Assembly: GCA_964415065.1 (NCBI GenBank)
Contig: CAYPYX010000010.1
Coordinates: 864 to 64,863, forward strand
Length of the DNA: 64,000 nucleotides
Source of the DNA: an uncultured Rhizobium sp.
GTDB lineage: Bacteria > Bacteroidota > Bacteroidia > NS11-12g > UBA955
Direction of reading: 5' to 3'
The translations under genes and the position numbers were made by a program. Below, piece by piece: positions 48,675-61,425 of the stretch; the stretch's first letter is position 1; each line of letters starts with the position of its first letter. The notes beneath the pieces were generated by a model that was not told the DNA's origin, did not search any database, and was given only the letters and a program-made list of their open reading frames with translations.

Positions 48675-48720
48675 ATGAAATAAATTGCTGAACTTTGATC
48701 CTATTAACTTGTTAACGATC

Positions 48721-51700
48721 ATGATCAGAATGAAATTCTTGTTTTGTGCACTATTTAGTTTAAGTACTTTCAGTTTAAGTAATGCCCAAGTTAGGCAAGC
48801 TCCCACAACTAAATCCAAAACAAACTCTCAGAATATCCCCGAAAAAACAAAAAATAACCCTTCTCGAACAAATCAGTCAACTACTCAAAAAACCAGAATA
48901 AATCCAACCCAATCAATCATGCCTTTACTCGATGTCGAACGGCCAGTAAAAGGTTTACCTGTTGGGGAGGGTGTAGATGCCTTTGAAGTAGAAGGAGACG
49001 CTTTTGCAATTAGACAGCGTCAAGCAAAAGACTACAAACAATACGTAAATCCATTTATAGGTACTGGTGGGCATGGACATACTTTTCCTGGTGCTGTAGC
49101 GCCGTTCGGAATGGTGCAGCTAAGTCCTGATACTCGAAATGATGCTTCATGGGATGCTTGTGGCGGTTATTATTACAATGATTCAACTATTTTAGGATTC
49201 TCACACACCCATTTAAGTGGCACGGGTGTGTCGGATTTAGGAGATATATTGTTCCAGCCTACGGATGGTCCGAAATTTGATCCCAAAGAATACAGAGAAG
49301 CCTATTTACATCGCGATGAAGTGGCAACGCCAGGTTATTACAGCGTGCGATACCGCAGAACACGTATAAGAACTGAATTGACCGCATCAGATTACACCGG
49401 TATTCAGAGATATGAATTTTCCAATCCCAATGAAGCATGGGTGATTATAGATTTGGAACACCGCGATCAACTTTTGTCTTTTTCCTTGGATTTAGAGAAT
49501 TTTAAACCGGGTTCCGATATTGAAGACCAAGGAATTTATCGCATCAGAGGCCACAGACAAAGCAAGGCATGGGCAAATAATCAATGGGTCTTTTTTGTGA
49601 CTGAATTTTCTCAACCTATATTGAAATTTCAATACAATGAAAATAAAACCAAATTAGCTTTGTGCTTTAGGAAATCGGTTATACCAAATATCGATAATAG
49701 CGATGGACGATTCCCTCAAATCCCGGAAAAGAAGTTTTTAGACATTCGAAGTAATTCAGCCTTTACGTTAGAAGTAAGAACAACTATATCATTTACTTCT
49801 TTAGAAGGTGCTGAAAAAAATGAACAATTTACATTGAATCAGCTTAATGAAAAATTGATGCAATTTCGGGGACCAAAAGGTATGGGCGATGATATGTCGC
49901 CTTTTCAATTTGTGAAAGTAGAAAATAAAAACTGGTCGGAAGAATACATAAATATATTGGGGAATTCCGGAAATGAGATTTCCAAAAGCGTATCGAATCA
50001 GAAGTTACCCATAAATTATTTCGAATTGATGAAAAAATCCACAGAAATCAATTGGAATAGTGAATTGAGTAGAATTAAAGTGGATTTCAATTTGTATCAA
50101 AATGAAAACGGCTCGCTGCAAAATTTAGTTAATTTTTATACCGCTCTATATCACACATTTATTCATCCTTCTTTAGCTTCAGATTGTGATGGGAATTATC
50201 GTGGTAGAGATCAGAAACTGCATACGGCAAGTCATCGTGTTTATCATGTGTTTTCGTTGTGGGACACCTACAGAACGCTGCATCCATTATTGACATTAGT
50301 TCAGCGTAAACGTACCCGGGAATTTGTACGTAGCATGTTGTTGCAATACAAAGACGGAGGGAAATTACCAGTTTGGGAATTAGGGTCGTGTGAAACCAAT
50401 TGTATGATTGGCTTTCACAGTGTGCCTGTGATCGCTGAAGCGCTGGCTAAAGGAATTGATCTACAATTGGACGGTACGGATGGACTGACTGAAGAACTTT
50501 TAGTTAAGGCAATAATGGAAAGTAGCAACGGAAAGGAATTGTCGTATCAATATGCTATTCCCACAGCGCACGAATTATTAACCATTTATAATTTGAAATT
50601 AGGTTATATGGATGTACTCAAAGAAGCAGAATCGGTTTCAAAAACTTTAGAATACGCGTATGACGATTTTTGCACTAGGAGAGTTTTAGAGTTATTAGAC
50701 GGTTTTGAATCTTCTACGGGGGATGTGTATTCAGGAAAATATGATTCTTTAGTCCGCGAATTAAAGCGCCGAGAAAATCGCTGGATGAATTTATACGATT
50801 CAGAGAGTAAATCTTTTAGACCTAAGCATAATGGGCAGTTTTTAAGTCCTTTCCAACGCAATGAAGTCAATAATCATTACACGGAAGCAAATGCTTGGCA
50901 ATATTCACTTGCGGTGCAGCACAATGTTTTGGGATTATTTCAAGTGTATGGTGGATACAACGGTTTTAAAACACATTTAGATACGTTGTTTTATGGCTCA
51001 AGTAAAACCTCCGGAAGGGAACAGGCGGACATTTCAGGTTTAATTGGACAATATGCACACGGAAATGAACCCAGTCACCACATGACTTATCTTTACAACT
51101 ATTTAAATCGAAAGGATCAGACTCAGAAAATTCTTTGGAATATTTATAGCAATTTCTATAAAAACAGCCCAGACGGATTAATTGGAAATGAAGATTGTGG
51201 GCAAATGAGTGCTTGGTATGTAATGTCTGCTTTAGGAATATATCCGGTAGCACCTGGTACGAATCAGTATGAATTGGGATTGCCGTTGTTTCCCAGAGTA
51301 CAATTATTTACAGAACAGGGTGATACTTTTACTTTTTCGAGGGATAAAGCCACGGAAAATGAATTGTGGTTTATGTACAACGGTTTGAACCCGATGCATT
51401 TTGAATTAAATACGGATGGTGATTTAGAGAAATATCTAAAGAAGTTTGAAAATAGTAGTCAAACAGTAAAGCAATTCACAGAAACAGAATTTTACAAGAA
51501 GAATAAGGAGGAGCTATTTTATCATTCTACTTACGTACCTAGAATTGGTTATCACTATTTAGAAATATTTAAAGAGGTTAAGTTTAAACGGGTTAAAAGT
51601 ATTTCACCGAATGCAGATGAAATTAGGGGTATAGAAAAACAATTTCATGAACTGATTTCGTTGAATAGTGCCATTTCGAATATATCTGACGAAATAGCAA

Positions 51701-52716
51701 TTCGGGCTGAAATAACATCCCCCAGAAAGGTAAAAAAAGGTGAGCGTTATACCGTTGACATCAAGCCAGTTGATATGCTGAACGCAGTCAATATGACGGA
51801 TAGATTAAATGGTGGTATGGAGCGGGGTATTAATTTAGGTACTGAGCAAAAAAAGAGTTTAGATGGTGTTGAGTTAAATCAGTCTAGAATGGGATTGCAT
51901 GTTTTTGTCCGATTAATGAATGAATCTATTAATAATCATTCTTCATTTTCTGGAAGAACATTGCCTGGACAATTTACACAGATATATGTATTGTCTTTAT
52001 CTGATACTGCGGTGCGTTTGAATTTAACGGGTCCTGCGTTGATTTGGGCTGCGTATGGAGATACGGCAGTGAATTCGATAACGAGATTAAATTATACTGC
52101 CAGTTATGTGTATGAACAGCCAAATAATTACGAGGTGATTTCGATTACTGGGAAATACAATCCTCAATATTCGGGAGGTGGGGATCAGGCGTTAATTGAT
52201 GGTGTTTTGGGAAGTGAAGAATGGCGAGCAGGAGGATGGCAAGGGTATCAAAGTCAGGACTTTGAATGTGTGATTGATTTAAAAGAATTAACCGAAATTA
52301 AGTATTTGGGAATTCGTTTTCTTGCCGATCAACGAGCATGGATATTCGAACCTAAAGACGTCGAATTTTATTATTCTGAAGACGGAAAAGAGTATAAATT
52401 GTTCAATAGGTTTGATTTTAGAGGTCTGATTAGGGAAGAAACAGTGATTGTTCCTTTAGTTTTGGGAAAGGGTGATGCCTCAGGCTTACGGCAACAACCT
52501 GATTCCAGCGTGAATGGATTTTCTGGAGGGATTAAGTTGTCCAAAAAGAAAAGGCACAAACATAAAGATCAAAAGATCACGGCTCGATATATAAAGGTTA
52601 AGGCAAAGAATTTCGGCAAATTACCCCCTAGGCATCCAGGTTATGAATACAATGGTGAAGCGTTTATTTTCGTGGATGAGATTCTAATTAACCCAGAGGT
52701 AATGGAATTGTTGTAA
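48721..52716 (+). CDS. GH92 alpha-mannosidase with a C-terminal F5/8 type C (discoidin) domain
   Basis: YVNPFIGTGGHGHTFPGAVAPFGMVQLSPDT, FSHTHLSGTG and GNEDCGQMSAWYV are GH92 hallmarks. A discoidin-like tail (WRAGGWQGYQ...ARYIKVKAKN) is present. ATG at 48721 (MIRMKFLF signal peptide); the track start at 48685 is a TTG. Confidence 0.93.
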   Translation: MIRMKFLFCALFSLSTFSLSNAQVRQAPTTKSKTNSQNIPEKTKNNPSRTNQSTTQKTRINPTQSIMPLLDVERPVKGLPVGEGVDAFEVEGDAFAIRQRQAKDYKQYVNPFIGTGGHGHTFPGAVAPFGMVQLSPDTRNDASWDACGGYYYNDSTILGFSHTHLSGTGVSDLGDILFQPTDGPKFDPKEYREAYLHRDEVATPGYYSVRYRRTRIRTELTASDYTGIQRYEFSNPNEAWVIIDLEHRDQLLSFSLDLENFKPGSDIEDQGIYRIRGHRQSKAWANNQWVFFVTEFSQPILKFQYNENKTKLALCFRKSVIPNIDNSDGRFPQIPEKKFLDIRSNSAFTLEVRTTISFTSLEGAEKNEQFTLNQLNEKLMQFRGPKGMGDDMSPFQFVKVENKNWSEEYINILGNSGNEISKSVSNQKLPINYFELMKKSTEINWNSELSRIKVDFNLYQNENGSLQNLVNFYTALYHTFIHPSLASDCDGNYRGRDQKLHTASHRVYHVFSLWDTYRTLHPLLTLVQRKRTREFVRSMLLQYKDGGKLPVWELGSCETNCMIGFHSVPVIAEALAKGIDLQLDGTDGLTEELLVKAIMESSNGKELSYQYAIPTAHELLTIYNLKLGYMDVLKEAESVSKTLEYAYDDFCTRRVLELLDGFESSTGDVYSGKYDSLVRELKRRENRWMNLYDSESKSFRPKHNGQFLSPFQRNEVNNHYTEANAWQYSLAVQHNVLGLFQVYGGYNGFKTHLDTLFYGSSKTSGREQADISGLIGQYAHGNEPSHHMTYLYNYLNRKDQTQKILWNIYSNFYKNSPDGLIGNEDCGQMSAWYVMSALGIYPVAPGTNQYELGLPLFPRVQLFTEQGDTFTFSRDKATENELWFMYNGLNPMHFELNTDGDLEKYLKKFENSSQTVKQFTETEFYKKNKEELFYHSTYVPRIGYHYLEIFKEVKFKRVKSISPNADEIRGIEKQFHELISLNSAISNISDEIAIRAEITSPRKVKKGERYTVDIKPVDMLNAVNMTDRLNGGMERGINLGTEQKKSLDGVELNQSRMGLHVFVRLMNESINNHSSFSGRTLPGQFTQIYVLSLSDTAVRLNLTGPALIWAAYGDTAVNSITRLNYTASYVYEQPNNYEVISITGKYNPQYSGGGDQALIDGVLGSEEWRAGGWQGYQSQDFECVIDLKELTEIKYLGIRFLADQRAWIFEPKDVEFYYSEDGKEYKLFNRFDFRGLIREETVIVPLVLGKGDASGLRQQPDSSVNGFSGGIKLSKKKRHKHKDQKITARYIKVKAKNFGKLPPRHPGYEYNGEAFIFVDEILINPEVMELL

Positions 52717-53452
52717 CATACATTCCTTTGTCGCGTATCTTGGCAATTCTCATGTGAATCCAGTAAAAGGCGGCAAAATGGAGTAATACGGCAAATTCCA
52801 AGCCCAAAATATACCAAGGCCACTCGCCGATGATAAACGGGTTTTGTGCATCTGGTTTTTGAGCAATGAACATGTAATTTGAGTTTAACAAGTAGTTAAT
52901 TAATCCAATTATTGGTAAGGTTAATTGTGTGTAACCCATAACTTTTAGCCAAGAGTGTTTACGCGGTGTGAAATTGAGACGGTAAGTAGCGTAAATACCT
53001 GTAATAATCACACCAGCGTGAGCTATTCCGTATTCCCAATGATTATAAATAGATGCACCATCGGTTATTTCAGGAGTTAAAAATGAGTGAATAGCGCCAG
53101 CTGACCAGAAAATGAGGAATTCATACGCCCATTGTTTTTTATTTAGTAATACAATAACACTAAGAATAGTTGAAAATGAACATAAGTGTAAGGGAAGGTG
53201 TACTTCTTTTTGCCAAATACCTGAGTAAAGGGCGTAAATCTGATTAAATATAAAATTAGAAATTAGAATTCCTGCGAGGATAGGGGTTATGATTTTTTTA
53301 GATTTTTCTGTTTTGGAAAAATACAATATTACAGCGGTACCTAGAATTAAGCCAATGTTAAGATAAATCCATGCTGGGGAACCTATTGCAATTGTATGGT
53401 GAAGTGCATTTCTGTCCATGAGTCTGAATATGAGTAAATTAAAGTTGGGCAA
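52688..53452 (-). CDS. Polytopic membrane protein (possibly YwaF/TMEM164-like)
   Basis: About seven TM helices with HLPLHLCSFS. Its 3' end overlaps the convergent GH92 gene by 29 nt. The family assignment is tentative. Confidence 0.7.
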   Translation of the reverse strand: MPNFNLLIFRLMDRNALHHTIAIGSPAWIYLNIGLILGTAVILYFSKTEKSKKIITPILAGILISNFIFNQIYALYSGIWQKEVHLPLHLCSFSTILSVIVLLNKKQWAYEFLIFWSAGAIHSFLTPEITDGASIYNHWEYGIAHAGVIITGIYATYRLNFTPRKHSWLKVMGYTQLTLPIIGLINYLLNSNYMFIAQKPDAQNPFIIGEWPWYILGLEFAVLLHFAAFYWIHMRIAKIRDKGMYVTTIPLPLG

Positions 53453-53674: not shown

Positions 53675-53702
53675 CAAAAAAAGGCCACCTTTCGGGTGGC
53701 CT
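53675..53702 (-). terminator. Rho-independent terminator after the 59-aa mini-protein gene
   Basis: Stem aggccacc / ggtggcct with loop tttcg. An A8 run on the plus strand gives a T-run on the minus strand. Lies 24 nt past the stop at 53726. Confidence 0.75.
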
Positions 53703-53725
53703 CTATACAATTTGAATTAATTTTA

Positions 53726-53905
53726 TTATTTGTTTTTGTTCTTCAAACGGTAAACACCATAAGCAATGGCTGAACCTACTACAGAAACAATACCACCATC
53801 TACAGGAACCTGCAAATCTGGATCATCAGGAACACCTTGTGCGAAAACGGCTTTAGTTGAAATGGCAAGTGCTACAAGGAGGAAAAGTTTAAAATTCTTT
53901 TTCAT
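53726..53905 (-). CDS. 59-aa mini-protein: signal peptide plus a PEP/PID-CTERM-like sorting tail (uncalled)
   Basis: My translation: MKKNFKLFLLVALAISTKAVFAQGVPDDPDLQVPVDGGIVSVVGSAIAYGVYRLKNKNK. It has a Sec signal with a VFA-Q site, a P-V-D-G-G motif, a TM helix and a basic cluster. ATG at 53905 and TAA at 53726..53728. A terminator follows. Confidence 0.65.
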   Translation of the reverse strand: MKKNFKLFLLVALAISTKAVFAQGVPDDPDLQVPVDGGIVSVVGSAIAYGVYRLKNKNK

Positions 53906-53941: not shown

Positions 53942-56752
53942 TTATTTGATTTGGATCATTTTGGTGCTAACGCCAAGATTAGTATTAAGTTGAATCAAAT
54001 AGATTCCCGGAGTTAAGTTAGTTGCGTCAATCGAATTGTTCATATTCATTTTGCCTTTAGAAATAATCTTTCCGTCAATTCCAAGAATTAAATAGTTTGA
54101 AATACTCATACTTCCATTCGTTGCAACTTGAATATTCCCATCGATACTGGGGTTAGGGTAAAGAACAACTTGTTCTTGCCAGTTTGTAGTTGTAGTGCTT
54201 GCGCTTTTATCTATTCCAGTGAAGATTAAGTCAAATCGGGTTGATGTGTTTGCACCCGTTTCAGCAATAGAGTAATTATAAATAAAGTTGTCAGTTACTG
54301 TATTCAGCTTGCCTGTGTGCTTATCTAAAAGTTGAACGGTATAGTTAGAATTTCCTGAAGAGCAATAATTAAAAACTAAACGAAGGTTTTTGGATCCGTC
54401 TTTAGGGTAAGCCACTTTTAAAGCTTGAGTATATGTTTGACCAACAGAAGCAAGTTTTGCTTTTCTATCGATTGAATACCAATTGCCATTACTTGAAATG
54501 GATCCAATTCCTAAATAACCAGCATAAAACTTAGGAACATCAGCAAAATCATCTCCATTGGTAATATCTGATTGTTCCAAATCAAATTTCATTTCAAATC
54601 CGTCTTGTTCAACAGCAGAGTCTTCTTGATAACGCATTTGGATTTTTAATTCATCACATGAAATTTCATTTAATTCTTGAACACCAAAATGCTTTGTAAT
54701 AGAACGCGAATAAGGAGTTTTTATATCTTCTGTGAAGGACAAAGTTGCATTGTTGTTTCTAGCGAAAACGAAGAACGCTGAGCCAGGAGCAGCAAATCGA
54801 GCGCGGCCTGAAGCACCATTGGTGTTACCCGTGAAATGAGCCGCACCACTACGACCTGGAGTACCTGCAGATGAGCTGTCCCAAGTGTTATATGTTTTGG
54901 AAATAGCATCGTAAAAATAGAAACGAGGATAAATGGAGTTTTTATTAGTTCCTGATTCGTACAAAGCTCTTAAATTAATGGTTGATGGATATGGATTTCC
55001 GACTAAATTAGCTCCATTTAACGAAGTGTTAGCACCAGATGTTAGATTAAGAGTTACCGATGTGTTTCCAGTATGTAATTGACCTTTGAAGTCAATTGGT
55101 GTTGAGTTGGCTGCAATAGAGGTATCACCTAGTCCCCAATCTGCATTTTTAGTTCCGCGATAGAAAATTAAAGCACCTTGACCTAAGGACAACGTATTAC
55201 CTGAAGTGGTAGATTTAACTGAACTCCAGTTTTGAGTAGACTGATTCCAAAGGAATACAGATGATTTACAATATGAGCACTTAGTTGTGAATGAGTCTTG
55301 ATTGTCACCCAAATCGTCAACGTTTCCTGTTAAATGGATGTTGTCTGCAAACTGTGATAAACGGGTACCGTTGGCCAATGGAATTCCATAAGCTCTGTAG
55401 GCTCTTCTCGTCGAATTGTAAATTTCAAATAAAACTCCACCAGTAATTGAACTTGTTGAAGGTAAAGCAGCTAATTGTCCATAAGCATTTGTAATAGCTT
55501 TTTCTGCCCATTTGAACTGCAAATTAGGAATCCAACTATTGAACTGAGCTTCTGAGTTCCCAGCTGGAGAATTTGAAACTAATGTAGTGTTTGGGTTGAT
55601 TTTTAAAACTGAAAACAACGGTAAAGTGCGATTTAAAGTAAAGGTGCTAACTGTTGAACCAACACCATTTCCAATTTCAACATTCATCAATGAATCGATA
55701 TATAAAATTCCACCTGTACCATTTAGAGATTGTGCTCTTCCATCCAGATATAATGTGTTGGTTGCAGATGGTTTGAATGATAAGGATCCACCTACCGTGT
55801 GAATATTGCCACTTAATCGATGTGTTCCACTACCAATAAATTCTACAATACCGTTAGAAGTAGTTACGCGGCCATTCATGTCAAGCGTATTTGTTCCTGC
55901 TACATTGATGGATAGTTTTGAAGATGAAATTCCGTTTTGACTTGCAGAAGGACCAGAAAAGCGAGCGAAAGAATTGGTATCCAATATGAAATCATGTCCA
56001 TCCAAATTCGATCCAGTAGCACCAATTTGCCAATTGGCAGCATTGGTAGTACATTTAAAATCTACGTGGTTGTAGGGTTTAATGATGAATTGTCCAATTT
56101 GTTCGGTTACACCCGATATATCAATGGTGGTTTTCTGGATATTGGTGAAATCCCCCAAGTCTACCAATAAAATATCATCCACTGCCGGAGTAGTTCTTAC
56201 TGGACTCCAGTTGTTGTCTCTATCATATGTAGAATCCACCCCAGATGTTCCCACCCAGGTGTAAACACCTTTATTTGTAACTTGTATTGAAGCATTGATG
56301 GTAAAGGATGGCGTAAAAGAAGAACAGTTACCCCCAACTCCAATATACACCGAAGTGGTAAAAGTACCTGTTGATGTTGGCACGAATCTTAATTTTACAG
56401 TTTCAGTCGTTCTCGCACCGCCGTTGTGAGGGACCTGAGCTGCTCTACAAAATTTTTGCCATCCATTAGATCCAGAAGAACCAAATAGTACTTCCCATCC
56501 TGTATTACCTGAAGATTCAGAAAATAACAATTTATCATTCCCAGAAAAATTTTCATAAGTTACTAAAATGGTTTTCTCAATGGTTGTGCCAGCAGTTGTG
56601 GATGTAATCCACTCCAAGCCGTAGGTATTGTTAGCTGTGGCAGATGTGGCGCCGTTAGCTACAACACTTACAATGTTGCCCGCTTTTGAAAACGTGAATG
56701 CACAAAGCACCAAAAGTGTAGAAGCTAACTGCTTGAAAAATTTATGTTTCAT
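53942..56752 (-). CDS. Large T9SS type A sorting-domain surface protein
   Basis: Signal peptide, long beta-rich body, and C-terminus VVLYPNPSIDGNIQV...LTPGIYLIQLNTNLGVSTKMIQIK. Confidence 0.85.
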   Translation of the reverse strand: MKHKFFKQLASTLLVLCAFTFSKAGNIVSVVANGATSATANNTYGLEWITSTTAGTTIEKTILVTYENFSGNDKLLFSESSGNTGWEVLFGSSGSNGWQKFCRAAQVPHNGGARTTETVKLRFVPTSTGTFTTSVYIGVGGNCSSFTPSFTINASIQVTNKGVYTWVGTSGVDSTYDRDNNWSPVRTTPAVDDILLVDLGDFTNIQKTTIDISGVTEQIGQFIIKPYNHVDFKCTTNAANWQIGATGSNLDGHDFILDTNSFARFSGPSASQNGISSSKLSINVAGTNTLDMNGRVTTSNGIVEFIGSGTHRLSGNIHTVGGSLSFKPSATNTLYLDGRAQSLNGTGGILYIDSLMNVEIGNGVGSTVSTFTLNRTLPLFSVLKINPNTTLVSNSPAGNSEAQFNSWIPNLQFKWAEKAITNAYGQLAALPSTSSITGGVLFEIYNSTRRAYRAYGIPLANGTRLSQFADNIHLTGNVDDLGDNQDSFTTKCSYCKSSVFLWNQSTQNWSSVKSTTSGNTLSLGQGALIFYRGTKNADWGLGDTSIAANSTPIDFKGQLHTGNTSVTLNLTSGANTSLNGANLVGNPYPSTINLRALYESGTNKNSIYPRFYFYDAISKTYNTWDSSSAGTPGRSGAAHFTGNTNGASGRARFAAPGSAFFVFARNNNATLSFTEDIKTPYSRSITKHFGVQELNEISCDELKIQMRYQEDSAVEQDGFEMKFDLEQSDITNGDDFADVPKFYAGYLGIGSISSNGNWYSIDRKAKLASVGQTYTQALKVAYPKDGSKNLRLVFNYCSSGNSNYTVQLLDKHTGKLNTVTDNFIYNYSIAETGANTSTRFDLIFTGIDKSASTTTTNWQEQVVLYPNPSIDGNIQVATNGSMSISNYLILGIDGKIISKGKMNMNNSIDATNLTPGIYLIQLNTNLGVSTKMIQIK

Positions 56753-58657: not shown

Positions 58658-59110
58658 ATGAAACGACTTGAATTTGTTCAGGAACTGCCAATTACCTTAG
58701 AAGAAGCGTGGAAGTTTTTTTCTTCACCCAAGAATTTGAATGAAATCACCCCTGAAGATATGGTGTTCAAAATCACTTCAAATCCGCCAGAAGAAATGTA
58801 TCCTGGCTTGTTTATAACTTACAAAATTTCACCTTTTTTAGGAATACAAATGGATTGGTGCACTGAAATAACTCACGTTATAGATCGTCGGTATTTTGTA
58901 GATGAACAAAGAAAAGGTCCCTATAATATTTGGCATCATGAACACCATTTTGAAGAAATTCCAGGTGGAGTGAGAATGACAGATATTCTTCACTATGACA
59001 TAGGTAAGGGAATATTAGGAATTATTGCAGGTAAACTGTTTGTGGATCAAAAAGTGAAGGGTATTTTTGATTATCGTTACAAAAAGTTACAAAAATTATA
59101 TTCGAACTAG
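58658..59110 (+). CDS. SRPBCC-superfamily (cyclase/dehydrase-like) protein
   Basis: MKRLEFVQELPITLEEAWKFFSSPKNLNEITP... and WHHEHHFEE match the SRPBCC ligand-binding fold family. Confidence 0.78.
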   Translation: MKRLEFVQELPITLEEAWKFFSSPKNLNEITPEDMVFKITSNPPEEMYPGLFITYKISPFLGIQMDWCTEITHVIDRRYFVDEQRKGPYNIWHHEHHFEEIPGGVRMTDILHYDIGKGILGIIAGKLFVDQKVKGIFDYRYKKLQKLYSN

Positions 59111-59228
59111 CCCTAAACCGGGTTTTCAAGTTTTTAGATCAATCAATTATAGAGTACTTTTGTTGCACTATCCTATTCAACCGCTGATTTAGATTTTAAT
59201 TGAAAAGTTAAAATCAGAACGAATCAGA

Positions 59229-59837
59229 ATGCGAAAGTTGATGGTTGTTAAACTTATGAATCTTAATTATTTCTTTTCCAATCTCAAAAAAAGCACTTTT
59301 GACCAAATGAACAGCGGTCAAAAAATCTTTTTGAAGAATACAGCTATTTCCATTTTCTTGTGGATACTTATTGCTGATTGGTTAGTTATTCATAATTTTT
59401 TAATTGAAAATTTAGCTAAAGCTTCAGCTTTAGCTGTTGAGTTTTTTACGGGTGAGAGGCCTACCATATTTTGTTTTAATAAACCAAATGGTGGTGGGGA
59501 GATTTTAAGCAATGTAAAAGATGCTCGGGGATATGTAAGGATTGGTTCTCCATGTGATGCTTGGGAACTGTATTACCTTGGTGTTGCATTTATATGGGTT
59601 TTCCCTCAAGGCACGTGGAAACGGAAATTGATGTATTCCTTAATAATTCTTTTCGTTTTATATGTAACCAACATATTACGCGTTGCTGGTTTATTCCAAA
59701 TTTCAAAGGATCATCCCGATTGGTTTCATGTTTTCCATAAGACCATTTTTCAGTTTGTTGTATATGCTATCATGTTTATTGTATGGATTTTTTATTTGAG
59801 AAAAGCGAAACAAAGAGAATTCTCCGCAAAAGCGTAA
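59229..59837 (+). CDS. xrtF: Exosortase family protein XrtF
   Basis: Polytopic. Exosortase-type Cys...Arg...His spacing: GSPCDAWE, then ~45 aa, then TNILRVAG, then ~20 aa, then WFHVFHKTIF. The size and Bacteroidota context fit XrtF. The start codon is uncertain. Confidence 0.72.
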   Translation: MRKLMVVKLMNLNYFFSNLKKSTFDQMNSGQKIFLKNTAISIFLWILIADWLVIHNFLIENLAKASALAVEFFTGERPTIFCFNKPNGGGEILSNVKDARGYVRIGSPCDAWELYYLGVAFIWVFPQGTWKRKLMYSLIILFVLYVTNILRVAGLFQISKDHPDWFHVFHKTIFQFVVYAIMFIVWIFYLRKAKQREFSAKA

Positions 59838-60238
59838 AATATATCTTAGTGATCTGGTTGTTATTTGTTGGCTACGGATGGTTCAACAAGTATATGTTTG
59901 ATAGTTTTCATAAAGGTGGCATTTTCTCATGGCAACCTATGCGATTTATTATGCGAGAAATCGCTGTTTATGGCATCGGATGGATTGGTTATCATTTTGT
60001 CCATAAATATCTCAATCAACCTTTAAGAGTTCAATATTGGTTAATTCTTGCGGTGCTGGATGTGTATTGTGTAGTTGTTGCATTTTTTCGATTTAGCGTA
60101 GTCGACAATGCGTTTATGTTCAAAGCATACGATCAGGTATTGAGTTTGATAACTTCGCCTTTGTATTTTATTTTTTTTCTAGCCTATAGCCTGGTGTTCC
60201 AAATGGAAGATAAACCTAAAGCTGAGCAAAATTCTTAA
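59783..60238 (+). CDS. Exosortase F system-associated membrane protein (candidate)
   Basis: About 150-aa multi-TM protein immediately after XrtF, overlapping it by 55 nt. The call rests on the known obligate pairing of XrtF with such a gene. Confidence 0.55.
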   Translation: MDFLFEKSETKRILRKSVKYILVIWLLFVGYGWFNKYMFDSFHKGGIFSWQPMRFIMREIAVYGIGWIGYHFVHKYLNQPLRVQYWLILAVLDVYCVVVAFFRFSVVDNAFMFKAYDQVLSLITSPLYFIFFLAYSLVFQMEDKPKAEQNS

Positions 60239-60303
60239 TTCGATTATTCTGAGATTTAGTTAAGTTTTATCAAAAAAATGGCCTGGACATTGTACATTGC
60301 AAT

Positions 60304-61425
60304 GTGAATTTTCTCAAGACCACGGACTGTTTGAAATTAATTCCTTCAAAAACAACGCTCATTATTGCTGTTTTATGTCTCTCAAATCCTATTTGCAGCC
60401 AATCTTTTATTGATGCAAAATTATTATACGGGAAAATGGTCCCCCATTCGATTTATACTGAACCTTTAGCGGCAACAGTTTCAGGTATTCAATTGGATGC
60501 AGATTGGGAAATCCCTATAGAACGTCGTCCTATTTATCAAAAAAAGAAGAAGTATTATAGTCAACCGCATTTGGGTGTATCATTGCTAGCAATGGACATG
60601 GGAATTCGTACTACGGGTTCACAATTTGGTATGGCTGTATCCGTGGGTGGAATTCGTCCTTTTTCAGACAAATTTGGCATTAGATGGCGTTTTGCACACG
60701 GTATCTCATACCTTACAGAAAAATACGATACGAGTATGGAGCCAATTAATTATGGCATAGGTTCCCATATTAACTATATGGGTGTACTAACCGGAGAGTT
60801 CCGATTTAAATTCACGCAATATTTAGGTATGAATCTGGGTTTGAATCTGACCCATTGCTCCAATGGGAATTATAAAAAGCCCAATGTTGGACTCAATGCA
60901 ATAAATGGCAGTTTTGGCTTGTCATATTCACCCCATTCAAATCGCACTGAGGGAAAAAGATTATATCGGCTTAAGCATAAGTATTTTGCGTATCCCTATT
61001 CTTTGGGTGTAAAATTTGCTATTCGCGAACACTCATTGGAATTTCCACAACCATCAGCAATTTGGATATTTGATTTTAATTATCGAGTCCAAAAAAACGC
61101 AAATGGTTATTGGGATTACGGCATAGAATTATTTTCAGATCCTAATTACTATTGGGATCAATTTGGGAATTTGTACGGGGTAGAAGCAAAAGATACAAGA
61201 GAAGTAGCTCTTAAGGTAGGGAAGGTATTTTTATTTGGGCGATTAGGACTGCGTTTTGATTTAGGTTATTATGCCTTGAAACCAGTGCATAGCGATAAGC
61301 CTTTGTTTTATAATGGATTGGGATGGGATTACAGATTGTCTCAGAATTGGATACTCCGAAACCGAATAAAAGCTCACTTGAATAAAGCTGATTTTATGGA
61401 ATGGGGTTTGAGTTATATTTGGTGA
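60304..61425 (+). CDS. Acyloxyacyl hydrolase (PagL-like lipid A deacylase family)
   Basis: Beta-barrel-like composition with LTHCSNGNYKKPNVGLN (PagL-type H-x-S-N-G catalytic motif). GTG start at 60304. Confidence 0.72.
   Translation: MNFLKTTDCLKLIPSKTTLIIAVLCLSNPICSQSFIDAKLLYGKMVPHSIYTEPLAATVSGIQLDADWEIPIERRPIYQKKKKYYSQPHLGVSLLAMDMGIRTTGSQFGMAVSVGGIRPFSDKFGIRWRFAHGISYLTEKYDTSMEPINYGIGSHINYMGVLTGEFRFKFTQYLGMNLGLNLTHCSNGNYKKPNVGLNAINGSFGLSYSPHSNRTEGKRLYRLKHKYFAYPYSLGVKFAIREHSLEFPQPSAIWIFDFNYRVQKNANGYWDYGIELFSDPNYYWDQFGNLYGVEAKDTREVALKVGKVFLFGRLGLRFDLGYYALKPVHSDKPLFYNGLGWDYRLSQNWILRNRIKAHLNKADFMEWGLSYIW

Follow-up and report, generated by a model that had tools for sequence, protein, structure and literature searches.

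The PEP-CTERM/XrtA (EpsH) protein-sorting system reportedly goes back to Haft et al. in 2006. In the archaeosortase A (ArtA)/PGF-CTERM and rhombosortase/GlyGly-CTERM systems, the C-terminal transmembrane (TM) anchor of the substrate is removed and a lipid-type moiety takes its place; to our knowledge, no Bacteroidota exosortase has been shown to do anything of the kind. In Flavobacterium johnsoniae, xrtF and Fjoh_1449 mutants exhibit a colonisation, biofilm and zorb phenotype that is common to porU, porV and porZ mutants (PMC10936215), and the substrates of this XrtF system are given as unknown (PMC10936215, PMC12188702). The PID-CTERM/XrtX class exists as database models only, its members appearing in public records as 'hypothetical protein' or having their genes missed. 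Here we describe a 59-amino acid (aa) mini-protein gene and a nearby exosortase gene in a stretch of 64,000 nucleotides (nt; 37% G+C), hereafter the window, of contig CAYPYX010000010.1 (assembly GCA_964415065.1), registered as an uncultured Rhizobium sp. and placed by GTDB in the Bacteroidota. The mini-protein is probably a pre-pro-peptide dedicated to the XrtX-related exosortase encoded nearby, as its substrate and probably its only one. Its gene, which ends in a tail that we assign to the PID-CTERM class, is found across deep divergence together with an exosortase clade, and also with a RemA/RemZ-like adhesin gene.

The mini-protein gene and its sorting tail

The original prediction singled out an uncalled 59-aa open reading frame (ORF), and the sequence that it quoted is the exact translation of 59 codons plus a stop: MKKNFKLFLLVALAISTKAVFAQGVPDDPDLQVPVDGGIVSVVGSAIAYGVYRLKNKNK. 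The frame is shorter than usual length cutoffs and its homologues are labelled 'hypothetical protein' wherever public sources name them, as might be expected of an ORF arisen by chance in the 3' untranslated region of the preceding adhesin gene. The comparative data reduce the probability of such an origin to practically nothing. A word-indexed protein search returned six close homologues of 59-61 aa, and contig look-ups together with genome and metagenome scans yielded at least 13 distinct DNA versions of the gene, from uncultured freshwater Bacteroidia metagenome-assembled genomes and from metagenome assemblies. On contig JACCDW010148441.1 the mini-protein is identical to that of the window and the exosortase is 99% identical. 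Orthologues exhibit 56-98% identity, and the mini-protein of locus L022 (L-numbers designate the loci fetched for comparison) 29%. Among the records with this locus, several (L014, L017, L019-L021) bear the titles 'Chitinophaga pinensis' or 'uncultured Rhizobium sp.'; these look like placeholder or mistaken names, since gene content and the G+C of the related window indicate an uncultured lineage of freshwater Bacteroidia. The window and L009 genes differ by 23 synonymous and 4 non-synonymous changes, and over all pairs the proportion of synonymous differences (pS) is 0.28-0.66 and that of non-synonymous differences (pN) 0.015-0.27 (Nei-Gojobori method). As is typical of signal peptides, this part of the gene evolves fastest (pN 0.35-0.47); the mature part and the tail exhibit a pN/pS of about 0.2, far under 1, and the frame survives a two-codon indel. 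The P, D, G and G of the PVDGG motif are invariant in the mini-protein alignment (A6). The ORF is moreover kept across lineages whose neighbouring proteins share just 23-45% identity, and it persists at L013, where the adhesin gene is missing. The number of DNA versions and the synonymous bias already refute a chance ORF; the tail, which matches a full sorting-signal model and is the sole one of its kind in the window, adds to them. The original claim of a genuine mini-protein thus stands; the gene is conserved in relatives and under strong purifying selection. A scan of viral contigs with the mini-protein profile gave no match.

The N-terminal signal peptide, as judged by inspection and hydropathy, combines a basic n-region with a hydrophobic core and carries V-F-A at positions -3 to -1. 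Cleavage by signal peptidase I is predicted after V-F-A and would leave an N-terminal glutamine (Gln23). At the other end are the C-terminal features of the PID-CTERM class, namely a motif, a hydrophobic TM helix and then a basic cluster. The NCBIfam model NF046080 (PID-CTERM) aligns to residues 33-57 over all its 25 positions (E-value = 3.4e-5) with 23.6 bits, under its cutoff of 26 bits; four orthologous mini-proteins likewise give full-length matches under this cutoff (21-23.9 bits). PVDGG aligns to model positions 1-5, with valine in place of isoleucine as in 77 of 120 relatives. Precomputed Pfam records list PF28310 (PID_CTERM) matches, flagged 'weak', on close homologues (66-98% identity), and a local Pfam search of the window mini-protein gave no PF28310 match at E-value ≤ 1. 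NF046080 is the sole NCBIfam match: no PEP-CTERM model matches at E-value ≤ 1 and the sequence has no PEP motif, which rules out a PEP-CTERM (XrtA-type) identity of the tail. The search with sorting-tail models that the original prediction proposed as a check therefore upholds the tripartite layout and the PID-CTERM half of its "PEP/PID-CTERM-like" label, and discards the PEP-CTERM half. A regular-expression scan for PID-like tails returned only the mini-protein itself, whether run on a six-frame translation of the 64-kb window or on the full set of fetched loci.

A profile of seven mini-proteins retrieves 722 related clusters at E-value ≤ 10. The original prediction had implied that such a protein is rare; the best 120 of the 722 are all 40-94 aa long (median 63), so that a signal peptide, a sorting tail and little else is the norm for PID-CTERM-class mini-proteins and not a local oddity. 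In the tally of these 120, P[VIF]DGG is present in 119 (77 PVDGG, 42 PIDGG) and an Ala-Gln junction in 93, the YG pair of the TM helix is highly conserved, and the spacer has a median of 12 residues (range 2-28). Two tail subtypes are distinguished by sequence and by score against NF046080: PVDGG-I(F/V)(T/S)VVGSAIAYG(V/I)Y, to which the window protein belongs (19-24 bits), and the canonical PIDGG-ISLLVAAGIGYG(A/I)K (45.7-48 bits). The tail is kept across sub-families, in contrast to the spacers, which differ strongly (QAGFDDDVVDV, GPHSPGGDPGG and others). Taken together, we place the tail in the PID-CTERM class of exosortase sorting signals, as a distinct sub-threshold subtype.

Two further arrangements were observed in the family. 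The loci L038-L040 and L045-L046, from other organisms, combine the spacer QAGFDDDVVDV with the same PVDGG-IFTVVGSAIAYG tail subtype and exhibit no sortase within 10 kb; the exosortase of these genomes may be XrtF. At L043 (9711-10186) and L044 (6076-6551), a peptidase S46 gene is followed downstream by two tandem 61-aa canonical PID-CTERM mini-genes (the copy tested scores 48 bits), with no sortase or RemA-like gene within 10 kb.

The mini-gene starts 36 nt past the stop codon of a 936-aa ORF encoding a type IX secretion system (T9SS) cargo protein, as originally described, and a scan for terminator-like sites between the two genes found none. The strong terminator placed 24 nt after the mini-gene was also found: the GGCCACC core of the hairpin is at this distance from the stop codon, and the scanned stem opens at 21 nt (-16.9 kcal/mol, z = -3.4). 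A hairpin followed by a T-run is present 3' of the mini-gene in 12 of the 15 loci checked, with differing stem sequences; it is absent at L022 and L035, where the exosortase gene comes next in the operon, and at L041. Given the short gap, the lack of an intervening terminator and the conserved terminator downstream, the mini-gene would be transcribed together with, or right after, the adhesin gene, with transcription stopping at the hairpin.

Linkage to an XrtX-related exosortase

The only exosortase gene in the window starts 5.3 kb from the mini-gene, on the opposite strand; Met10, where the alignment places the conserved start, is probably its start codon, rather than the beginning of the ORF. 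The protein passes the exosortase/archaeosortase signature TIGR04178 (52.7 bits, cutoff 23). Its best model is XrtX (NF046081) with 77.3 bits over positions 13-165 of 168, below the cutoff of 170 bits, and its orthologues and clade members score 72-90 bits. XrtF (TIGR04128) comes second with 48.7 bits and fails its cutoff of 90, as it does for all orthologues tested. An exhaustive HMMER search of 1.84 billion representatives retrieved 855 exosortase relatives at E-value ≤ 1e-3 and just 8 at ≤ 1e-30. Of the 150 nearest representatives, 116 match XrtX, 10 XrtF and 1 XrtY at E-value ≤ 1e-25; true XrtX members (≥ 170 bits) are among them, with a best E-value of 1.2e-57. BLAST clustering places the window sortase in a 19-member clade apart from a 105-member XrtX-like cluster. 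Cys100, Asn139, Arg142 and His161 are invariant in 16 clade members, with an Asn-x-x-Arg spacing. A PDB sequence search with the exosortase profile found no solved relative. These scores and clusters identify the window sortase as XrtX-related, in a separate small clade, and not as XrtF. The "XrtF locus 5.3 kb away" of the original prediction is accordingly correct in its distance and in the presence of an exosortase, and mistaken in its name.

It is accordingly very improbable that the mini-protein is a substrate of XrtF, as first suggested. XrtF is the second-best model and matches 10 of the 150 nearest representatives at E-value ≤ 1e-25, which makes the two clades related; the literature leaves the targets of XrtF to be found (see above); and the same PVDGG tail subtype is present in other genomes with no sortase in the sequence read. 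Against this stand the XrtF scores of the window sortase and its orthologues, a partner protein lacking any NCBIfam match, and the presence of a single exosortase in the window.

The link to the neighbouring exosortase, in contrast, is borne out by synteny. The mini-gene is found 2-10 kb from an exosortase gene in the window and at L001/L003, L009-L011, L013, L014, L017-L020, L024, L026, L027 and L031. At L035, where the sortase is 36% identical to that of the window, just 4 nt separate the end of the mini-gene from the sortase gene, and a 150-aa partner comes next; the mini-protein is an obvious orthologue of the window's (...YAQGTPNQDPDLQVPVDGGIFSVVGGAIAYG...). At L022, the gene for a canonical 80-aa PID-CTERM mini-protein (45.7 bits) lies 80 nt upstream of a sortase gene of XrtX-like type (134 bits) and of the gene for its 137-aa partner. 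In both, the gene order is adhesin, mini-protein, sortase, partner. This adjacency supports a substrate-sortase pair, and from the two arrangements the general module appears to consist of mini-protein, sortase and partner, split into two divergent units in the lineage of the window. The tail subtype tracks the sortase clade: the window clade is accompanied by PVDGG-I.TVVGSAIAYG, and the XrtX-like type of L022 by PIDGG-ISLLVAAGIGYG. XrtX itself is presumably the cognate sortase of PID-CTERM, as the NCBIfam numbering suggests; the sole test of this pairing is L022, the sortase of which is itself below the cutoff. A tblastn search found no mini-gene at L015 (a short contig), at L021 (with only 4.8 kb on one side of the sortase) or in the 10-kb flanks of the L016 sortase; a 59-aa homologue (P0170), recorded with a longest contig equal in length to that of L016 (76,593 bp), is probably on the L016 contig, beyond the flank.

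We thus consider it probable that the mini-protein is made for this exosortase, and a course of events can be proposed. After Sec export, signal peptidase I would cut after VFA and expose Gln23, which would probably be cyclised, since the Bacteroidota "Q-rule" predicts that an N-terminal Gln is converted to pyroglutamate. The Gly/Ala-rich helix would hold the peptide in the inner membrane, with RLKNKNK in the cytoplasm. The exosortase, through its conserved Cys, Arg and His, and the 151-aa partner would recognise PVDGG and the helix and cut near the motif. By analogy with ArtA/PGF-CTERM and rhombosortase/GlyGly-CTERM, the resulting acidic peptide of about 11-14 residues, QGVPDDPDLQV(PVD), would be transferred to an acceptor or released. 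The PagL-domain and START-like genes and the TMEM164-type acyltransferase gene (Table 1) weakly hint at a lipid as the acceptor. Alternatively, the exosortase might do no more than proteolysis, setting the short acidic peptide free as a signal in the periplasm or medium without attaching it to an acceptor. The near-invariance of the mature segment (QG.P..DPDLQV) would suit a ligand. However, no receptor or export genes are linked to the locus, sub-families that keep the tail have strongly differing spacers, and the relatives ArtA and rhombosortase attach their substrates rather than release them; we regard a free signal as quite improbable.

Several points weigh against the mini-protein being the substrate of this exosortase. 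Both the tail and the sortase score below the cutoffs of their best models. Some 20 kb were read around each gene, and co-occurrence is assessed as local synteny only. No exosortase was found within 10 kb for four of the seven mini-protein queries (P0212, P0231, P0250 and P0274), which are from more distant sub-families; a substrate gene unlinked to its sortase is common among sortase substrates. Literature searches on PID-CTERM and on XrtX/XrtY returned nothing relevant, neither a publication nor an experimental description. Finally, the processing of the mini-protein by the exosortase is something that we infer.

The exosortase gene is the second of a conserved four-gene cluster (58658-61425, plus strand) that encodes a START/SRPBCC-like protein, the exosortase, the membrane partner and a PagL-domain protein. 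The 151-aa partner has no NCBIfam match at E-value ≤ 1, the XrtF-associated family included, and no Pfam family; a 137-aa gene is its counterpart at L022. The last 55 nt of the sortase gene (59783-59837) also belong to the partner gene. Similar overlaps at L016 (43 nt), L035 (49 nt) and L022 (14 nt) suggest translational coupling. The PagL-domain gene occupies the same position at L009, L010, L011, L013 and L016, and the START-like gene an orthologous position at L016, L009 and L003. At L041, a PagL-domain gene lies 8 kb from the mini-gene with no sortase in view. The sortase of clade member P0014 (L034, a contig of only 1.5 kb) is directly preceded by the gene for a 66-aa Cys-rich zinc-ribbon-like protein (561-761), which is not a PID-CTERM mini-protein. 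Genes of 180-190 aa near the mini-genes of L038, L043 and L045 were tested as exosortases and are not.

Table 1. Features of the mini-protein and exosortase locus, in window coordinates
Feature	Coordinates	Strand	Basis
Mini-protein gene, precursor with PID-CTERM-class tail	53726..53905	-	Translation, NF046080 match, orthologues, PF28310 records, purifying selection
Predicted Sec signal peptide, residues 1-22 (MKKNFKLFLLVALAISTKAVFA)	53840..53905	-	Sequence and hydropathy
Mature spacer QGVPDDPDLQV, residues 23-33 (11 residues, acidic, Pro-rich)	53807..53839	-	Alignments; near-invariant in clade
PVDGG signature motif, residues 34-38, counterpart of PID in PID-CTERM	53792..53806	-	Start of NF046080 match
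Gly/Ala/Ser-rich TM helix, residues 39-52 (IVSVVGSAIAYGVY), with conserved YG pair	53750..53791	-	Hydropathy and position-wise conservation
Basic cytoplasmic cluster RLKNKNK, residues 53-59	53729..53749	-	Sequence
Intrinsic terminator closing the adhesin/mini-protein transcription unit	53680..53704	-	10-bp G+C-rich hairpin and T-run
Exosortase, XrtX-related unnamed clade	59256..59837	+	TIGR04178, XrtX and XrtF scores; ORF opens at 59229
151-aa polytopic membrane partner	59783..60238	+	Conserved downstream at L001, L016, L035 and L037 (BLAST E-values 1e-8 to 1e-29)
373-aa PagL-domain outer-membrane protein, last of exosortase cluster	60304..61425	+	PF09411, 32.3 bits (gathering cutoff 23)
150-aa SRPBCC/START-like protein, directly upstream of exosortase	58658..59110	+	PF03364, 22.2 bits (slightly under gathering cutoff 23.4)
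936-aa type A T9SS cargo, probably of RemA/RemZ adhesin type: C-terminal ~450 aa (~residues 410-855) and CTD	53942..56752	-	CTD matches, BLAST, profile A7
TMEM164-family integral-membrane acyltransferase, next gene after terminator (context)	52688..53452	-	TIGR02206, 113 bits; PF14808, 138 bits

The neighbouring gene, probably for a RemA/RemZ-type adhesin

The T9SS assignment of the 936-aa protein in the original prediction was verified, its C-terminal domain (CTD) matching TIGR04183 (34.5 bits, cutoff 23) and PF18962 (31.7 bits, cutoff 27). The large genes that stand beside divergent mini-genes are mutually homologous far past this CTD (23-31% identity over ~500 residues, BLAST E-values 1e-14 to 1e-37), and the 936-aa protein itself matches the neighbours of distant mini-genes over ~500 aa (E-values 1e-14 to 1e-21). 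This adhesin-type set consists of the proteins of the window (936 aa), L009 (932), L017 (940), L018 (935), L041 (1084), L039 (1298), L022 (797) and L001 (1021), with a truncated ORF at L035. Searched against the PDB, a profile of the shared region (A7), the window protein included, matches RemA (8gl6_D, residues 965-1425, E-value = 7.6e-19) and RemZ (8gl8_D, E-value = 5.5e-18), with the motifs LIGNPYPS, AGQAFFV, F(T/S)E..K and DRF in alignment. The window sequence alone and the profile of its own clade (A8) match only CTDs in the PDB, so that the relationship of the window protein to RemA is transitive and rests on BLAST to intermediate sequences. The ~400-aa region before the CTD is covered by no Pfam or NCBIfam model.

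A hidden Markov model (HMM) built on the core region, CTD excluded, was run against all ORFs in 615 kb, that is, the window and the loci. Every match adjoins a mini-gene, except one at the edge of the L016 locus; as these loci were all chosen around mini-genes or sortases, the result measures adjacency and not genome-wide specificity. An adhesin-type gene is adjacent in five of the six divergent mini-protein sub-families sampled, and is missing at L013, L038, L043/L044 and L045/L046. On these similarities, we regard the 936-aa gene as a conserved partner gene of the mini-gene, probably of RemA/RemZ type. The original prediction had cited it as evidence of transcription only; it is in fact a recurrent partner.

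At L001 (3909-4526), all that is left of the upstream adhesin gene encodes a C-terminal fragment of 205 aa, with 64% identity to the L018 protein over residues 731-934 of the latter. In the same sub-lineage, it is downstream of the mini-gene that a full-length paralogue of 1021 aa is encoded (L001, 4804-7869; L020, 4891-7962). On the other side of the terminator in the window, the acyltransferase gene overlaps with its 3' end a convergent 1343-aa GH92 gene (48685-52716) by 29 nt. It adjoins the mini-gene at L009-L013, even where the adhesin gene is missing (L013), and follows after one intervening gene at L001.

The adhesin gene raises the alternative that the mini-protein is never cut. Once its signal peptide is removed, it would then remain in the inner membrane as a bitopic micro-protein, whose 16-residue tip reaches into the periplasm and whose single TM helix is followed by a basic tail. 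Its role would be that of an accessory factor, a chaperone or a regulatory subunit, serving either the RemA-like adhesin itself or the export of this adhesin by T9SS. The RemA-like gene adjoins the mini-gene at least as consistently as the exosortase gene does, and several mini-genes have a RemA-like neighbour or none, yet no exosortase within 10 kb. The TM helix, YG pair included, is highly conserved, as a functional helix would be; such conservation is, however, also normal for the sorting helix of sortase substrates. The full-length fit of the tail to a sorting-signal model, the agreement of tail subtype and sortase clade, and the operons of mini-gene, exosortase and partner at L035 and L022 all argue against an uncut protein, which we consider unlikely.

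With the mini-protein as an exosortase substrate, its recurrent association with RemA/RemZ-type genes supports a speculative, testable link between exosortase and type IX sorting. RemZ is described as homologous to RemA and as a type A substrate of T9SS (PMC10994853), and the CTD of RemA confers surface anchoring through an unidentified anchor (PMC12618676); literature searches on Fjoh_0802-0809 found nothing relevant. The two pathways could be coupled if the processed mini-peptide, perhaps on a lipid or glycan, were a dedicated cell-surface anchor or partner for the adhesin. Such a coupling, which we put forward tentatively and hold to be rather doubtful, would explain the recurrence of the four-gene module (adhesin, mini-protein, exosortase, partner) over deep divergence, the phenotype shared by xrtF and porU/porV/porZ mutants (PMC10936215), and the anchoring of RemA-type CTDs (PMC12618676). 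Were it true, the substrates still lacking for XrtF-like sortases throughout the Bacteroidota could, by extension, be PVDGG/PIDGG mini-proteins.

The recurrent adjacency to T9SS adhesin genes is the unexpected and new element of this locus, and suggests an experiment joining two sorting systems so far studied apart. The locus presents a concrete candidate substrate-sortase pair open to genetic testing, and given how small the substrate is, mass spectrometry should readily detect its processed form. Because both halves are below curated cutoffs, automated annotation will not name the system, which is known from database curation, unpublished and experimentally uncharacterised, and of which the window holds a sub-threshold variant.

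Comparison with known systems

With PEP-CTERM/XrtA, the locus shares a tripartite C-terminal signal (motif, TM helix and basic residues) and a polytopic Cys/Arg/His enzyme. It differs in lacking a PEP motif or model match, in having one tiny substrate instead of many large ones, and in the absence of an exopolysaccharide (EPS) locus around the sortase. ArtA/PGF-CTERM and rhombosortase/GlyGly-CTERM differ from it by other motifs, enzymes or hosts and by their large-protein substrates. The XrtF system of F. johnsoniae (Fjoh_1448/1449) likewise has a Bacteroidota exosortase of similar size and a co-transcribed small membrane partner, whereas the window sortase reaches only about half the XrtF cutoff (48.7 vs 90 bits) and its partner is without an NCBIfam match. 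The 936-aa protein resembles RemA and RemZ of F. johnsoniae (PDB 8GL6, 8GL8; PMC10994853) in having a type A CTD after a probably common ~400-aa region, the N-terminal halves being unrelated and the homology transitive.

The likeness is greatest with PID-CTERM/XrtX (NF046080, PF28310, NF046081). Common to both are the signal peptide, the short spacer, the P-[IV]-D-G-G motif, the Gly/Ala-rich helix with YG, the basic cluster and the mini size of the protein; its gene is beside or near that of a small, ~190-aa exosortase, followed by that of a ~140-150-aa membrane protein, and XrtX is the best model. The window departs from the class in its scores (23.6 vs 26 bits for the tail, 77 vs 170 bits for the sortase), in a sortase that falls in a separate BLAST cluster, in a tail of the form PVDGG-I.[ST]VVGSAIAYG.Y and not PIDGG-ISLLVAAGIGYG.K, and in a split operon, with the mini-gene 5.3 kb from the sortase gene and on the opposite strand. 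By these comparisons, the locus is closest to the curated PID-CTERM/XrtX system, from which we set it apart as a distinct tail subtype paired with a distinct sortase clade.

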